In this document: one piece after another, positions 57,801-62,936 of the stretch | Position numbering within the stretch: position 1 is the first letter of the stretch | How the letters are laid out: every line of letters begins with the position of its first letter | NCBI RefSeq assembly: GCF_988242995.1 | Contig: NZ_OZ547043.1 | Strand: one strand, 5' to 3' | Length of the DNA stretch: 64,000 nucleotides | Made by a program: the position numbers

Positions 57801-60800
57801 TCAAAACGCTGGGGGCAGGGCGAGCGCAACTGCGTAAGCTAATCGTCGGTCAGTGGTTGATGGTGCTGGCGCTTTCAGCCGTTACCGGCGGGGCGATAGG
57901 CCTGTTGTTCGAAAACGTGTTGATGGTGCTGCTCAAGCCCGTTCTGCCTGCTGCACTACCGCCAGCCAGCCTCTGGCCGTGGCTGTGGGCGCTGGGCACC
58001 ATGACAGTCATCTCGCTGCTGGTGGGGCTACGACCGTACCGCTTGTTGCTGGCAACGCAGCCTTTACGCGTATTGCGTAATGATGTGGTCGCGAACGTCT
58101 GGCCGCTGAAGTTTTATCTGCCGATTGTCAGTGTGGTGGTTGTGCTGCTGCTCGCCGGATTAATGGGTGGCAGTATGCTGCTCTGGGCGGTGCTGGCGGG
58201 CGCGGTAGTGCTGGCTTTGCTGTGCGGTGTGCTGGGCTGGATGCTGCTGAATGTACTTCGCCGCATGACGCTGAAATCGCTACCTCTGCGCCTGGCGGTT
58301 AGCCGCCTGTTACGTCAGCCGTGGTCAACGTTAAGCCAGCTTTCGGCATTTTCGCTCTCCTTTATGCTGCTGGCGCTATTGCTGGTATTGCGTGGCGATC
58401 TGCTCGACCGCTGGCAACAGCAGCTACCGCCAGAAAGCCCGAACTACTTTTTAATCAACATCGCCACAGAACAGGTTACGCCGCTAAAAACGTTCCTCGC
58501 GGAACATCAGATAGTCCCGGAATCATTTTATCCGGTGGTGCGGGCGCGACTGACGGCGATTAACGACAAGCCGACAGAAGGCAATGAAGATGAGGCGCTT
58601 AACCGCGAACTCAATCTTACCTGGCAAAATACGCGGCCCGATCATAATCCGATTGTCGCCGGTAACTGGCCGCCAAAAGCCGATGAAGTGTCGATGGAAG
58701 AGGGGCTGGCGAAACGCTTAAACGTTGCCCTCGGCGATACCGTGACTTTTATGGGCGATACCCAGGAGTTCCGCGCTAAAGTGACCAGCCTGCGCAAAGT
58801 GGACTGGGAAAGTCTGCGGCCTAATTTCTATTTTATTTTCCCGGAAGGGGCATTAGACGGGCAACCGCAGAGCTGGCTTACCAGTTTCCGCTGGGAGAAT
58901 GGCAATGGCATGTTGACGCAACTCAACCGCCAGTTCCCGACCATTAGCCTGTTAGACATTGGCGCGATTTTAAAACAGGTCGGTCAGGTGCTGGAGCAGG
59001 TAAGTCGGGCGCTGGAGGTGATGGTGGTGCTGGTCACCGCCTGCGGTATGTTGCTGTTGCTGGCACAGGTGCAGGTGGGAATGCGTCAGCGTCATCAGGA
59101 GCTGGTGGTGTGGCGCACACTCGGTGCGGGGAAAAAACTGCTGCGCACCACGTTGTGGTGTGAGTTCGCCATGCTCGGGTTTGTTTCTGGCCTGGTGGCC
59201 GCAATTGGTGCGGAAACGGCGCTGGCAGTGTTGCAGGCGAAAGTGTTTGATTTCCCGTGGGAGCCAGACTGGCGATTGTGGATTGTTCTGCCGTGCAGCG
59301 GTGCGCTGCTGCTGTCGCTTTGCGGCGGCTGGCTGGGCGCGCGACTGGTTAAGGGTAAGGCGCTGTTCAGGCAGTTTGCGGGGTGATGTGATAAAGCCGT
59401 TTATTTCTACCTGGTAGATAAACGGCTTTATTATTAGTGCATCACGTAATTAAAAAATTGTTATGCCCAAACATATAATTAATATACATTGCCAAATGAG
59501 TTGTTTATTAAGTTTATATTATATAATTAAAATCTATGGAATGGGTATAATCATATGGGTGACATTATATATTTACGCATTACAGGGGAGCAACAAGGGG
59601 ATATTTCTGCAGGATGCGGGACGCAAGCCTCTGTCGGGAATCGGTATCAACAGGGACATGAAGATGAAATATTTGTTTTTAGTTTTCAGGGAGGAGTGAG
59701 TAATACAGGATTTGGCATTAATCATCAAGCGATACAATTTTGTAAAATTCTCGATAAAAGCTCACCGCTGCTGATGAATTGCATTAATAATAACGAACGA
59801 TGCCGTTTTGAGTTTGATTTTTATCGTATTAATAAATATGGGAAATGGGAAAGTTATTATTATATTGAAGTCCGCGGTGCAACGTTAACTCAGAATCAGA
59901 TTATAATAAAAGAAAATGAACTCGACTATCAATATATAACAATACACTACAAATATATCTACTGTAAGCATCTTACAGCCAATACAGAATTTAGTTATTT
60001 ACTCACACCTGAAAATTATAATCGCCTTTTCCCACCGACGCTCTTACCTGTTGAGGAAAAACCAGAAATACCGCCTGAACGAGAAATTATCCTCACCATT
60101 GGCGTATTCTTTGATGGCACAGGAAACAATTTAACCAATACGAATTTACGTATGAGTTTTTGCCAACCAGAAACCTATGGTCTGGATGTCCAGGATTTGG
60201 CCTCGTTTAATAAACAATGTATGAGCAAGCAGGGTAAAACGGGATCCGGAGTACAGAGCTATTTGAATTACTATACGAATATTCATTGGTTGAATGAGTT
60301 GTATCATCGGCAATTAGTTTTAGATGATGATGTATTTAATATTCAGGAAAAAATATATATTGAAGGTATTGGCACTGAAAATAATAAAGCAGACTCTCTG
60401 GTAGGAATGGGGCTAGGAAATAATGATACTGGGGTAATTGCCAAAACTGACCGTGCGATATCACTGCTTCGTGAGACACTGGCAGAGATTATTGTTGATT
60501 TAAAGGATGCTAAACTAGTAATTAAGCGTCTACAGTTTGACGTATTTGGCTTTAGTCGTGGGGCGGCAGCCGCACGGCACTTTACTAATCGCGTATTTGA
60601 ACGTGATCCCGTACTGATTAAAACCATTGCGACGGCATTTCAGTCAGTTGAATATTTAGGTAAACCTTCCGGGGAAGTGCAATTTTTAGGTATTTTTGAC
60701 ACAGTTGCAGCCATCGGAGGGCTGATGGATGGTTTTGACCCTCATGATGGTAATAACTTTCCGGTAAAAGTGAAGTTACCGCCAGGTGTGGCCAAACATG

Positions 60801-62936
60801 TATTCCAGCTCACAGCAATGAACGAATGTCGCTATAACTTTTGCCTCAACAGCATAAAGGAAAGCTGGCCAGAATTAAGTTTCCCTGGATCACATGCTGA
60901 TATTGGTGGCGGTTATGACCCACAGGAAGATGAGTACCTGTTTTTAAGTCGCCCGGCGATTGAAACGGTACTGGGAAATGTGCCGATGGAAGCGACAAGC
61001 GCTTACCAAAAAGCAGTACAGCAGGCAGAGTTATTGTGGCGCTATTCGACGCTGGCTCCGATTCTGCCTTCTGGTGTCCTAAAAATTGAATCCAATATTG
61101 ATGAAATAGCGTCGCCTGACCACTTAGGTAATGTGAGAAAACGGGTCGCTGCAGCGGTGACATTTCGCAGAACGATCACCAATGACTGGTCAAAGATTGC
61201 GTTAAGAGTAATGTATGAAGTCGCTAAAGAGGCAGGGGTAGTATTTGATGCCATTTCTGTTGCTGATAAGGAATTAAAAGTTCCCAGTCATTTAAAGGTA
61301 ATATGTGAAAAAGCAATTTCTCAGGGTAAAGCCGTTCTCTTGTGTACAGCGCCGATGCCTTTTTCTGATGATGAGCTTAAAACCATTGGGAAATATTTAC
61401 ACTGTTCTTCCAACTGGAATACCGTCGATTATCGATTAAAAAATAAGGTGTCTGCTGAAGTATCAGCGTTTAAGACGTTTAGTTTTGTTAATCGGCCGGA
61501 TGAAAATTGGACCAGAACTATATACGATATGCAAGGGAATAAACAAAATGGAATTTAATATAAAATTACTGTTTGTTATTACGTCTATGGTTCTTAACTT
61601 TAACGCAGCAGCGAAAGAAAAAATATTGTTGCTTGCACCCTATGATGAGTGGTATTTCAATTTTTTCTACCCTGATTCCCTACCAGCACAAGTTACCTAT
61701 GTGGAATTATTAGATACCGATGGCATCTATTATCAGTTCAGAACGCTGGCCAGTACCAATGCCAGTCCAGGAAGTGTTGGACAATGGAGCGAGAAAGTAT
61801 CAGGGATGTCGTCAGTTTTTAATAAAGCCAAAAACCCACCAATGTCTATCCATTTTTGCTGGGATTCAGTGATTGATAAAAAAGTGTATGAAACCTGGAT
61901 AACACTGGCGGGAGACGTCTGGAAATTGATGCTCACACCTTATTCACCACCAGGCGGTGGCAGTGAAAAGTATTATCTGCGGTATCTGTTAATCGGGCTG
62001 GCTCCGGAAGGAAAAGTACGGGTATGGCTTAATAAACGTGACAAACCCAATATTCGCCTGACGGATAAGCAGATTCTGATAGAAACGGTTTCAGGTGAAA
62101 AAATGGAAATGTGTAAAGGAATTTCCCGGCATGATTTTTCTCTTGGAGACGATGAATATGTTCTTGAGTTTATCAAAGATAAAAAATATCCCTATGGTAA
62201 CTGGTAAGTAACAATGAAAATAACAGCTAAAATAATTTATAGATTAACCATTGCGTTAATGATAGCCGGATCAGTCCAGACAGCAGCGAAAGAAAAAATA
62301 TCACTGCTTGCACCCTATGATGAATGGTATTTCCTTTTTTTCTACCCTAATGCGCTACCAGCACAAGTTACCTATGTAGAACTATTGGACACTGATGGTA
62401 TCTATTATCAGTTCAGAACGCTGGATGCTACCGCTCCGAGTTCCACTACTATTGGTCAGTGGAGAGATAATCTTCGGGTTGGGGTGTTATCATTCAATAA
62501 AGCCAAAAATCCCCCTATGTCTATCCATTTCTGCTGGGATTCAGTGATTGATAAAAAAGTGTATGAAACCTGGATAACGCTGGCGGGAGACGTCTGGAAA
62601 TTGATGCTCACACCTTATTCACCACCAGGCGGTGGCAGTGAAAAGTATTATCTGCGGTATCTGTTAATCGGTCTGGCTCCAGAAGGAAAAGTACGCGTAT
62701 GGCTGGAGAAACCTGACAAGCCCAATATTCGCCTGACGGATAAGCAGATTCTGATAGAAACGGTTTCAGGTGAAAAAATGGAAATGTGTAAAGGAATTTC
62801 CCGGCATGATTTTTCTCTTGGAGACGATGAATATGTACTTGAGTTTATCAAAGATAAAAAATATCCCTATGGCAACTGGTAGTTAACCAGTTGCACAATT
62901 TATTAAAGAGGAACGGAAAAGCATTTTTGTGGGTTA

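Follow-up and report, generated by a model that had tools for sequence, protein, structure and literature searches.

The stretch of DNA analysed here (the window; 64,000 nucleotides) carries, between the core genes ybbP and mnmH (selU), what is very probably an orphan T6SS effector-immunity cassette of the Hcp-ET2 class, representing one of at least five alleles of this site that are swapped by homologous recombination in the flanks. The features of the locus, with coordinates in the window, are as follows.

56972..59386, plus strand: ybbP, ABC transporter permease, left core flank; an 804-aa ORF with 98.1% identity to K-12 ybbP.
59389..62954, no strand: variable cassette of low GC (~3.56 kb), assigned as the Hcp-ET2 allele of the ybbP-mnmH site.
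59391..59431, plus strand: hairpin with perfect 14-nt arms (inverted repeat I5; 100% complementary) and a T-rich run after it.
59450..59479, plus strand: sigma-70-like promoter match TTAAAA-18-TATAAT, 5' of the fusion gene, 10/12 consensus.
59555..61558, plus strand: hcp-ET2, a 667-aa fusion of an Hcp domain (~aa 1-150), a Pro-rich linker, and a full Tle1 phospholipase domain (aa 173-661).
61548..62207, plus strand: DUF2931 (Tli1-family) immunity gene 1, 219 aa, 80% aa identity to copy 2.
62214..62882, plus strand: DUF2931 (Tli1-family) immunity gene 2, 222 aa, PF11153 at aa 28-201 (E=5.2e-26).
62872..62894, plus strand: terminator-like hairpin across the immunity gene 2 stop, with a 9-pair stem, 5 GC pairs, and a T-rich tail.
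62934..64000, minus strand: mnmH/selU, tRNA 2-selenouridine synthase, right core flank, extending past the window end.

An earlier note on this DNA had described a sharp AT-rich drop in the ybbP-selU interval, and computed composition bore this out. The GC content of the variable segment (59396-62954) was 0.396 compared to 0.556 for the remaining window, with values of 0.565 in the 5 kb left of the cassette and 0.551 in the sequence on its right. In windowed GC the difference was real, with the cassette forming the lowest-GC stretch of its size in the window (z = -3.55; next minimum 0.465), and GC3 was also lower in the three cassette genes (0.35-0.39) than in ybbA, ybbP, tesA, ybbO, cnoX, and mnmH (0.56-0.69). 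The RhsD element that the note placed at this position in K-12 is indeed present in MG1655, where the gene order is ybbP, rhsD-ybbC-ylbH-ybbD-ylbI-ylbG (7,301 bp), selU. When the window was compared by blastn with K-12 516-533 kb, only the flanks matched and no homology to the rhsD interval was detected; in this sequence comparison, K-12 homology ended at 59395 and resumed at 62955. The limits first proposed for the replaced segment, 59390-62933, held on the left and fell ~21 nt short on the right, because the cassette also provides the final six codons and the stop of mnmH (62934-62954). The MnmH C-terminus encoded with the cassette reads ...WVQTYACGY* compared to ...WVKAQ* with the other alleles, and the gene is 1,107 bp rather than 1,095 bp long.

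Domain searches identified Hcp and Tle1 domains together with immunity genes, in agreement with the earlier description of an Hcp-effector module in this interval. The 667-aa fusion matched Pfam T6SS_HCP (PF05638) at aa 6-138 (E=5.7e-13) and TIGR03344 (125.2 bits; cutoff 58.9), and its N-terminus aligned with the Hcp structures 3HE1, 6A2V, and 5MXN. The C-terminal extension of >60 aa carries a DUF2235/Tle1-like catalytic domain (PF09994; E=9.6e-11), and residues 173-661 aligned with residues 30-541 of EAEC Tle1 (6SJL_D; E=1.4e-127). The motifs GFSRG at aa 332 (Ser334), FDTV at aa 381 (Asp382), and SHADIGGGY at aa 446 (His447) align their S, D, and H residues with Ser197, Asp245, and His310 of EAEC Tle1, which reportedly form its catalytic triad (Flaugnatti et al. 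2016). Judged from this alignment, the Ser-Asp-His triad and GxSxG motif are intact in the window toxin, whose ORF is full length. Widely conserved copies share 99.4-100% identity with this toxin, a level that points to purifying selection on it. The fused Tle1 domain is 55-kDa in size, and RefSeq annotation already covers the cassette genes.

The start of immunity gene 1 overlaps the hcp-ET2 stop by 11 nt, and the two immunity genes are tandem paralogues with a 675-bp period, in which the direct repeats D1/D2 are 95%/82% identical. Immunity gene 1 was also called by PGAP in GF60, a strain with a near-identical cassette. NCBIfam returned no family for either DUF2931 protein, but Pfam did match. 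Their N-termini, MEFNIKLLFVITSMVLNFNAAAKEK and MKITAKIIYRLTIALMIAGSVQTAAKEK, resemble Sec-like signal peptides by eye, and no lipobox Cys was seen on reading either N-terminal sequence; the proteins are probably soluble and periplasmic. Across carriers, the immunity genes number from 1 to 4, and the copies are mosaic. DUF2931 genes were also found downstream of Tle1 homologues, fused or unfused, in eight genera (Escherichia, Salmonella, Pseudocitrobacter, Rahnella, Tatumella, Xenorhabdus, Enterobacter, and Kluyvera).

On the basis of domain architecture and the descriptions given in reviews, the cassette is assigned to the published Hcp-ET2 class. As summarized in reviews of Ma et al. 2017 (PMC6730261, PMC6099711), Hcp-ET2 confers T6SS-dependent antagonism via Tle1 phospholipase activity. 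The window locus resembles Hcp-ET2/ETI2, as outlined there, in its N-terminal Hcp, its C-terminal DUF2235/Tle1 domain, and the immunity function encoded directly downstream, as well as in its orphan location outside T6SS clusters and its Enterobacteriaceae host. No description of Hcp-ET2 at the ybbP-mnmH site was found in the literature searched, and the texts consulted on the class mention neither this chromosomal position nor its alternative alleles.

Two further systems share parts of this organization. The Tle1-Tli1 pair of EAEC (Sci-1 T6SS, EC042_4534/4535; cryo-EM structures 6SJL and 6SKI) has the same Tle1 domain, GxSxG motif, and S-D-H triad, and its Tli1, which carries DUF2931 (bioRxiv 10.1101/2024.03.05.583533), belongs to the same family as the window immunity proteins. 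However, EAEC Tli1 is an outer-membrane lipoprotein, while the DUF2931 proteins of the window have no lipobox Cys. EAEC Tle1 travels as a separate cargo on the TTR domain of VgrG1, partly via its N-terminal extension (PMC9860674). In the window fusion, the first ~29 residues of that Tle1 are exchanged for Hcp and the Pro-rich linker, which suggests that the carrier of the window toxin may be Hcp rather than VgrG. In Aeromonas hydrophila, DUF2931 proteins were experimentally shown to be Tle1 immunity proteins, and the Tle1AH-Tli1/Tli2 locus consists of a DUF2235 Tle1 followed by 0-3 tandem DUF2931 genes, similar to the 1-4 of the cassette; unlike the window toxin, Tle1AH is unfused, linked to a DUF4123 adaptor and VgrG, and found in another bacterial family (PMC7245790).

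From these features we infer that the fusion would be fired outward within the Hcp tube by a T6SS whose genes lie elsewhere in the genome, and that the phospholipase would then degrade membrane lipids in the periplasm of a neighbour cell. The two DUF2931 proteins, with their predicted signal peptides, would shield the producing cell and its kin in the same compartment. No T6SS core genes are present within the window.

Replacement hotspots between conserved core genes are a general concept in the E. coli pangenome. The earlier note had suggested such a hotspot here, at which different interbacterial-competition cargoes are exchanged. A survey of 5,426 complete E. coli genomes catalogued five allele classes at the site and showed that the cassette is not universal. 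An Rhs element was present in 2,878 genomes (~53%), a DinQ/AgrB-like type I toxin-antitoxin interval in 1,315 (~24%), and the Hcp-Tle1 cassette in 573 (10.6%); REP-only DNA or a 58-bp scar accounted for 584 (~11%), an approximate count because the empty-site query was confounded by flanks joined across a 709-bp DinQ-type interval. The proposed variability of the site and the horizontal exchange of its contents both stood, but the alternatives are not all interbacterial-competition cargo.

Breakpoints were identical in all of the ybbP-mnmH alleles. In the six allele types aligned, they fall after GGGGTGATG (59388), with all alleles diverging 2 nt downstream of the ybbP stop codon, and before the conserved ...AACCCATTCC (~62955). 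The ybbP-cassette junction was found in 572 of the 573 carriers, and the cassette had no other site in E. coli. The E. coli type strain has the 58-bp scar allele, a chimera in which parts of two other alleles are joined and 31 bp from the left end of the cassette are kept. The RhsD element of K-12 corresponds to Rhs locus 3, ybbA..ybbB (Jackson et al. 2009, PMC2935791). It shares with the cassette the ybbP-mnmH interval and its breakpoints, and both are toxin-immunity loci tied to contact-dependent competition whose presence or absence varies by strain. In contrast, there is no sequence homology between the two, the toxin is a YD-repeat shell in RhsD and an Hcp fusion in the cassette, and Rhs intervals span 6-8 kb compared to 3.6 kb for the cassette.

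Evidence for horizontal exchange came from comparing the cassette with its flanks. The window and GF60 differ by 2 mismatches over 59601-63098 (3.5 kb), while both flanks are 2-3% diverged, and a similar pattern was seen with ST131-type strains, where the tle1 domain is 99.4% identical and the flanks 96.1-96.5%. In addition, imm1 alleles are shuffled among strains with identical flanks, and the similarities of tle1 and imm1 are incongruent with those of the flanks. GF60 was considered as the strain of the window itself and rejected, given the divergence of the flanks and a P2-like prophage upstream in GF60, for which the ORF layout of the window leaves no room at the corresponding position. 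The exchange looks less like mobile-element insertion than like replacement of one allele by another through homologous recombination within ybbP and mnmH, and the Rhs, DinQ/AgrB-like, Hcp-ET2, REP-only, and 58-bp scar alleles would interchange by recombination in these core flanks. As at other core-gene replacement hotspots, unrelated gene sets alternate between flanks with elevated divergence and recombination tracts, and the ybbP-mnmH site is one more such hotspot, with nothing different in kind.

The cassette also occurs beyond E. coli. In E. whittamii both its site and its left boundary match those in E. coli, in Salmonella enterica subsp. houtenae it is again flanked by ybbP and selU, and in Pseudocitrobacter it adjoins ybbP. 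Because E. whittamii and Salmonella houtenae carry it at the same site, the cassette is possibly an older occupant; its horizontal transfer was upheld, but it may not be the newcomer that the earlier note implied. In all genera examined, the cassette has a higher AT content than its flanks, so low GC characterizes the module itself and provides no clock. Relative to E. whittamii, divergence is greater in the cassette than in its flanks, and tle1 of the E. coli carrier 377323_2f shares more identity with the E. whittamii gene (94.2%) than with that of the window (92.6%). Divergence reaches 3-5% in the 3' half of ybbP and in mnmH compared to ~1% in tesA-ybbO.

We tentatively raise the possibility that the site holds a very old balanced polymorphism, in which the cassette stood beside selU before the Escherichia/Salmonella split and persisted as deep allele lineages. 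The Rhs, DinQ-like, and empty alleles would have come later, with frequency-dependent selection acting on toxin and immunity repertoires. If this were the case, the raised divergence of the ybbP 3' half and mnmH would be a hitch-hiking footprint.

An alternative we consider unlikely is that, in the window strain, the cassette is an immunity island or silenced relic, kept as protection from neighbours armed with Hcp-ET2 rather than for attack. The variable number and mosaicism of the immunity genes are consistent with such a role, as is the decay of the toxin in some carriers, for example 377323_2f, in which the toxin gene and one immunity gene are frameshifted. AT-rich DNA is typically silenced by H-NS, which would also fit. 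Strains of ST131 clade C keep the cassette without a functional tssM (PMC10711316), and therefore its retention does not always reflect active toxin delivery. However, the full-length window toxin with its intact triad, and its near identity to widely conserved copies, argue against a relic in this strain.

Strictly vertical inheritance, with an ancestral cassette whose patchiness arose from independent losses and replacements and no horizontal transfer of the cassette itself, is less likely still. It would account for the conserved position in Escherichia, Salmonella houtenae, and Pseudocitrobacter, for the greater divergence of the cassette than of its flanks relative to E. whittamii, and for the remnant of the cassette left end in the scar allele, but not for the near-identical 3.5-kb tract shared with GF60 within diverged flanks, the excess similarity of the ST131-type tle1, or the shuffled imm1 alleles. 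The reading of the cassette as a recent foreign island, put in by an integrase, transposase, or phage and marked as a recent arrival by its low GC, draws on the sharp fall in GC and GC3 and on the presence of the cassette in just 10.6% of E. coli genomes, but is largely refuted and very improbable: no integrase or IS gene was found in the interval (window ORF list and PGAP annotation of the GF60 cassette), no tRNA gene is annotated there in GF60 (PGAP), no direct or inverted repeats flanking the cassette and no att site were found, and a single E. coli site, shared with E. whittamii and Salmonella houtenae, is combined with AT-richness in every genus. A mobile-element explanation was rejected on the lack of repeats and recombinase and on this single site.

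Under the preferred reading, an Hcp-ET2 allele exchanged through its core flanks, the cassette at ybbP-mnmH is ordinary pangenome biology. Published work already covers the effector class, its immunity family, and the variable presence of rhsD among strains, and no new kind of system is involved; mildly new are the precise breakpoints common to the alleles, the chimeric structure of the 58-bp scar, and the position of the cassette kept in Salmonella houtenae and E. whittamii. A single E. coli intergenic site alternates between Rhs, Hcp-Tle1, and DinQ-like type I toxin systems. This is of use in typing T6SS effector repertoires, such as that of ST131, where the cassette has up to four immunity copies, and in reading the presence or absence of rhsD.

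An Rfam scan detected no known RNA in the cassette. Assignment of the promoter at 59450..59479 is weak because promoter-like matches are fewer in this AT-rich region (5 observed) than in shuffled sequence (10.0 ± 2.3). The hairpin at 59391..59431 is, from its sequence, a probable terminator for ybbP brought by the cassette, and its left arm and loop are retained in the 58-bp scar allele.

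The earlier note had described an abrupt rise in AT content between ybbP and selU (mnmH), and both windowed GC and GC3 bore this out. GC content was 0.396 for 59396-62954, compared to 0.556 for the remaining window, 0.565 for the left 5 kb and 0.551 for the right flank; same-length segments elsewhere in the window never fell below 0.465 (z = -3.55 for 59396-62954). GC3 was 0.35-0.39 in the three cassette genes versus 0.56-0.69 in the adjoining core genes. The interval and its neighbours are arranged as follows:

56972-59386, + strand: ybbP, left neighbour of the AT-rich interval
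59555-61558: gene 1, Hcp-Tle1 fusion of 667 aa, with an N-terminal Hcp, a Pro-rich linker and a complete Tle1 phospholipase domain
61548-62207: gene 2, DUF2931, overlapping the toxin stop codon by 11 nt
62214-62882: gene 3, DUF2931, tandem paralogue of gene 2
62934 onward, - strand: mnmH/selU, right neighbour of the AT-rich interval

The note was also correct that K-12 holds RhsD here: MG1655 has ybbP, rhsD-ybbC-ylbH-ybbD-ylbI-ylbG (7,301 bp) and then selU. Homology between the window and K-12 ends at 59395 and restarts at 62955, with none found in the interval between. All allele classes of the site share the same breakpoints, splitting directly 3' of GGGGTGATG and rejoining at ...AACCCATTCC. 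A perfect hairpin with 14-nt arms (59391-59431) lies directly 3' of the ybbP stop, and a second hairpin spans the stop codon of gene 3. The last six codons of mnmH come from the cassette (62934-62954), so that the protein ends ...WVQTYACGY*, four residues longer than the ...WVKAQ* of other alleles. The same MnmH extension was observed in ST131-type strains, and a related KAYACGY* in E. whittamii.

Domain matches in gene 1 confirmed the proposed Hcp-effector module, with an Hcp domain (Pfam PF05638, E=5.7e-13; TIGR03344, 125 bits with the cutoff at 58.9) followed by Tle1. Its GFSRG (Ser334, the GxSxG nucleophile), FDTV (Asp382) and SHADIGGGY (His447) motifs aligned to the matching residues of enteroaggregative E. 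coli (EAEC) Tle1, which we take to be Ser197, Asp245 and His310. Residues 173-661 aligned along their whole length to EAEC Tle1 residues 30-541 (E=1.4e-127; 6SJL_D, a structure solved as a complex with VgrG), while the first ~29 residues of the EAEC protein give way to Hcp in the window fusion. We infer that the carrier of the Tle1 domain has switched from VgrG to Hcp.

Genes 2 and 3 are 80% identical to each other and belong to the DUF2931 family (PF11153, E=5e-26); as read from their translations, both start with a signal-peptide-like sequence without a lipobox cysteine. DUF2931 proteins are demonstrated immunity partners of Aeromonas hydrophila Tle1, where none to three copies occur (PMC7245790), and the domain is also present in EAEC Tli1 (bioRxiv 10.1101/2024.03.05.583533). 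The toxin keeps its DUF2931 partner, in one to four tandem copies, in Escherichia, Salmonella, Pseudocitrobacter, Rahnella, Tatumella, Xenorhabdus, Enterobacter and Kluyvera. The window fusion and its downstream genes have the Hcp-ET2 architecture. According to two reviews (PMC6730261 and PMC6099711), Ma et al. 2017 showed that an Hcp of this kind, ending in a DUF2235/Tle1 toxin, is responsible for T6SS-dependent antagonism between bacteria, and that an immunity protein encoded downstream neutralises it. The window fusion would be delivered by a T6SS and act as an enzymatic toxin, with the DUF2931 proteins predicted to confer immunity in the periplasm. Judged by size and order, the ORFs of the window include no apparent T6SS core gene and, one adhesin island excepted, match what we take to be the K-12 gene order.

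We surveyed the site in 5,426 complete E. coli genomes, of which 5,417 match the flanks. Cassette DNA was present in 573/5,426 genomes, nearly all of the cassette in 569 of these, and the ybbP-cassette junction in 572, indicating that it is essentially never elsewhere in E. coli. Carriers have one to four immunity genes each, and the toxin gene is frameshifted in one. The K-12-type Rhs left junction was found in 2,878 genomes (interval length about 5.9 to 8.4 kb). An interval of ~709 bp, annotated dinQ, occurred in 1,315 genomes and matched the AgrB antisense RNA family (Rfam RF02891; 53.6 bits, gathering score 40), which together identify it as a type I toxin-antitoxin module. This DinQ/AgrB-like allele, carried by about 24% of E. 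coli genomes, is exemplified by strain BA22372 (L005 8428-9136, at the site of window 59389-62954); it is presumably a second copy of dinQ-agrB, at a locus other than that of K-12. A 140-bp REP-only interval (536, Nissle 1917) or a 58-bp interval (E10, type strain ATCC 11775) accounted for approximately 584 genomes together, and the allele classes add up to 5,350 of the 5,417 flank-matching genomes. The 58-bp allele (L017 9172-9229 in E10; also ATCC 11775) is a chimeric recombination or deletion scar: the cassette hairpin, truncated to its left arm and loop, supplies the first 31 bp, and the REP allele supplies the last 37 bp from its right end. This indicates that the cassette was once replaced or deleted.

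No integrase or IS was found within the interval, nor repeats flanking it. Compared to strain GF60, the window has two mismatches across 59601-63098, with about 2-3% divergence either side. Against ST131-type strains, identity is 99.4% in the tle1 domain versus 96.5% in ybbA-ybbP and 96.1% in mnmH. Alleles of imm1, the first DUF2931 gene, differ among strains whose flanks are identical, and tle1 of 377323_2f is 92.6% identical to that of the window and 94.2% to that of E. whittamii. As these incongruences show, homologous recombination carries the cassette and segments of it from one lineage to another, and the breakpoints fall within ybbP and mnmH or close to them. Several alleles, common breakpoints and a near-identical tract in diverged flanks support the earlier proposal that the site is an exchange hotspot for Rhs and Hcp-effector cargo. 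Divergence of the window from all compared strains is 3-5% in the ybbP 3' half and mnmH versus about 1% in tesA-ybbO, which is suggestive of, although not conclusive for, long-lived allele classes.

The cassettes of GF60 and the window share 99.8% identity. Beside glsA, GF60 has a P2-like prophage that includes an integrase (L027, record 4356345-4378000). In the window, a copA-sized ORF (834 aa, 17041-19545) lies immediately upstream of a glsA-sized ORF (19808-20740), leaving no space for a prophage. This difference indicates that the two strains are not clonal, reinforcing the case for cassette transfer.

The Hcp-Tle1 fusion is widespread in Enterobacteriaceae. In E. whittamii the cassette occupies the ybbP-mnmH site too, and its left boundary is identical (toxin protein 90% identical, YbbP 98.5%). 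Gene order in Salmonella enterica subsp. houtenae is ybbA, ybbP, a 377-aa porin-like gene, Hcp-ET2 (61% identity), one DUF2931 gene, selU and purK; in Pseudocitrobacter faecalis it is ybbP, a porin-like gene, a metQNI-like transporter, Hcp-ET2 and two DUF2931 genes. A more distant clade at 47-49% (Enterobacter, Kluyvera) sits at other loci. In every genus examined, the module is richer in AT than its own flanks, so low GC is a stable property of the module rather than a sign of recent arrival. The cassette may have occupied this site for a long time, and possibly predates Rhs there. The porin-like products (377/379 aa) are 89% identical between Salmonella houtenae (L022 6451-7584) and Pseudocitrobacter (L008 1895-3034); the gene has no Pfam match on record and is absent among the E. 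coli alleles examined.

The Hcp-ET2 effector class, Tle1 toxin family, DUF2931/Tli1 immunity family and concept of replacement hotspots between core genes were already known, and PGAP annotation of the cassette genes exists in hundreds of genomes. The Rhs locus at this position, present or absent among strains, is Rhs locus 3 of Jackson et al. 2009 (PMC2935791). We found no paper placing Hcp-ET2 at the rhsD site; taken together with the scar allele and the conserved position across genera, this placement is a small descriptive addition.

Two other regions of the window stand out. A ~25-kb island (22373-47943), presumably missing from K-12 between ybaT and cueR, resembles a giant T1SS-secreted repeat adhesin locus:

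22373-23728: TolC-family gene
23831-44605: giant ORF of 6,924 aa, an Ig-like domain protein by GF60 annotation
44609-46771: type I secretion ABC permease/ATPase
46768-47943: HlyD adaptor

A second low-GC patch (~48200-50900) lies between cueR and ybbJ, with GC of 0.39-0.41 in the 1-kb windows starting at 49501-50001. Along with small hypothetical genes, it contains:

49027-50043, - strand: YadA-like autotransporter adhesin ORF

GF60, 13P477T and, in part, E10 have the patch, but K-12 and 536 lack it. This patchy distribution makes it a further variable spot, about 9 kb away from the cassette.
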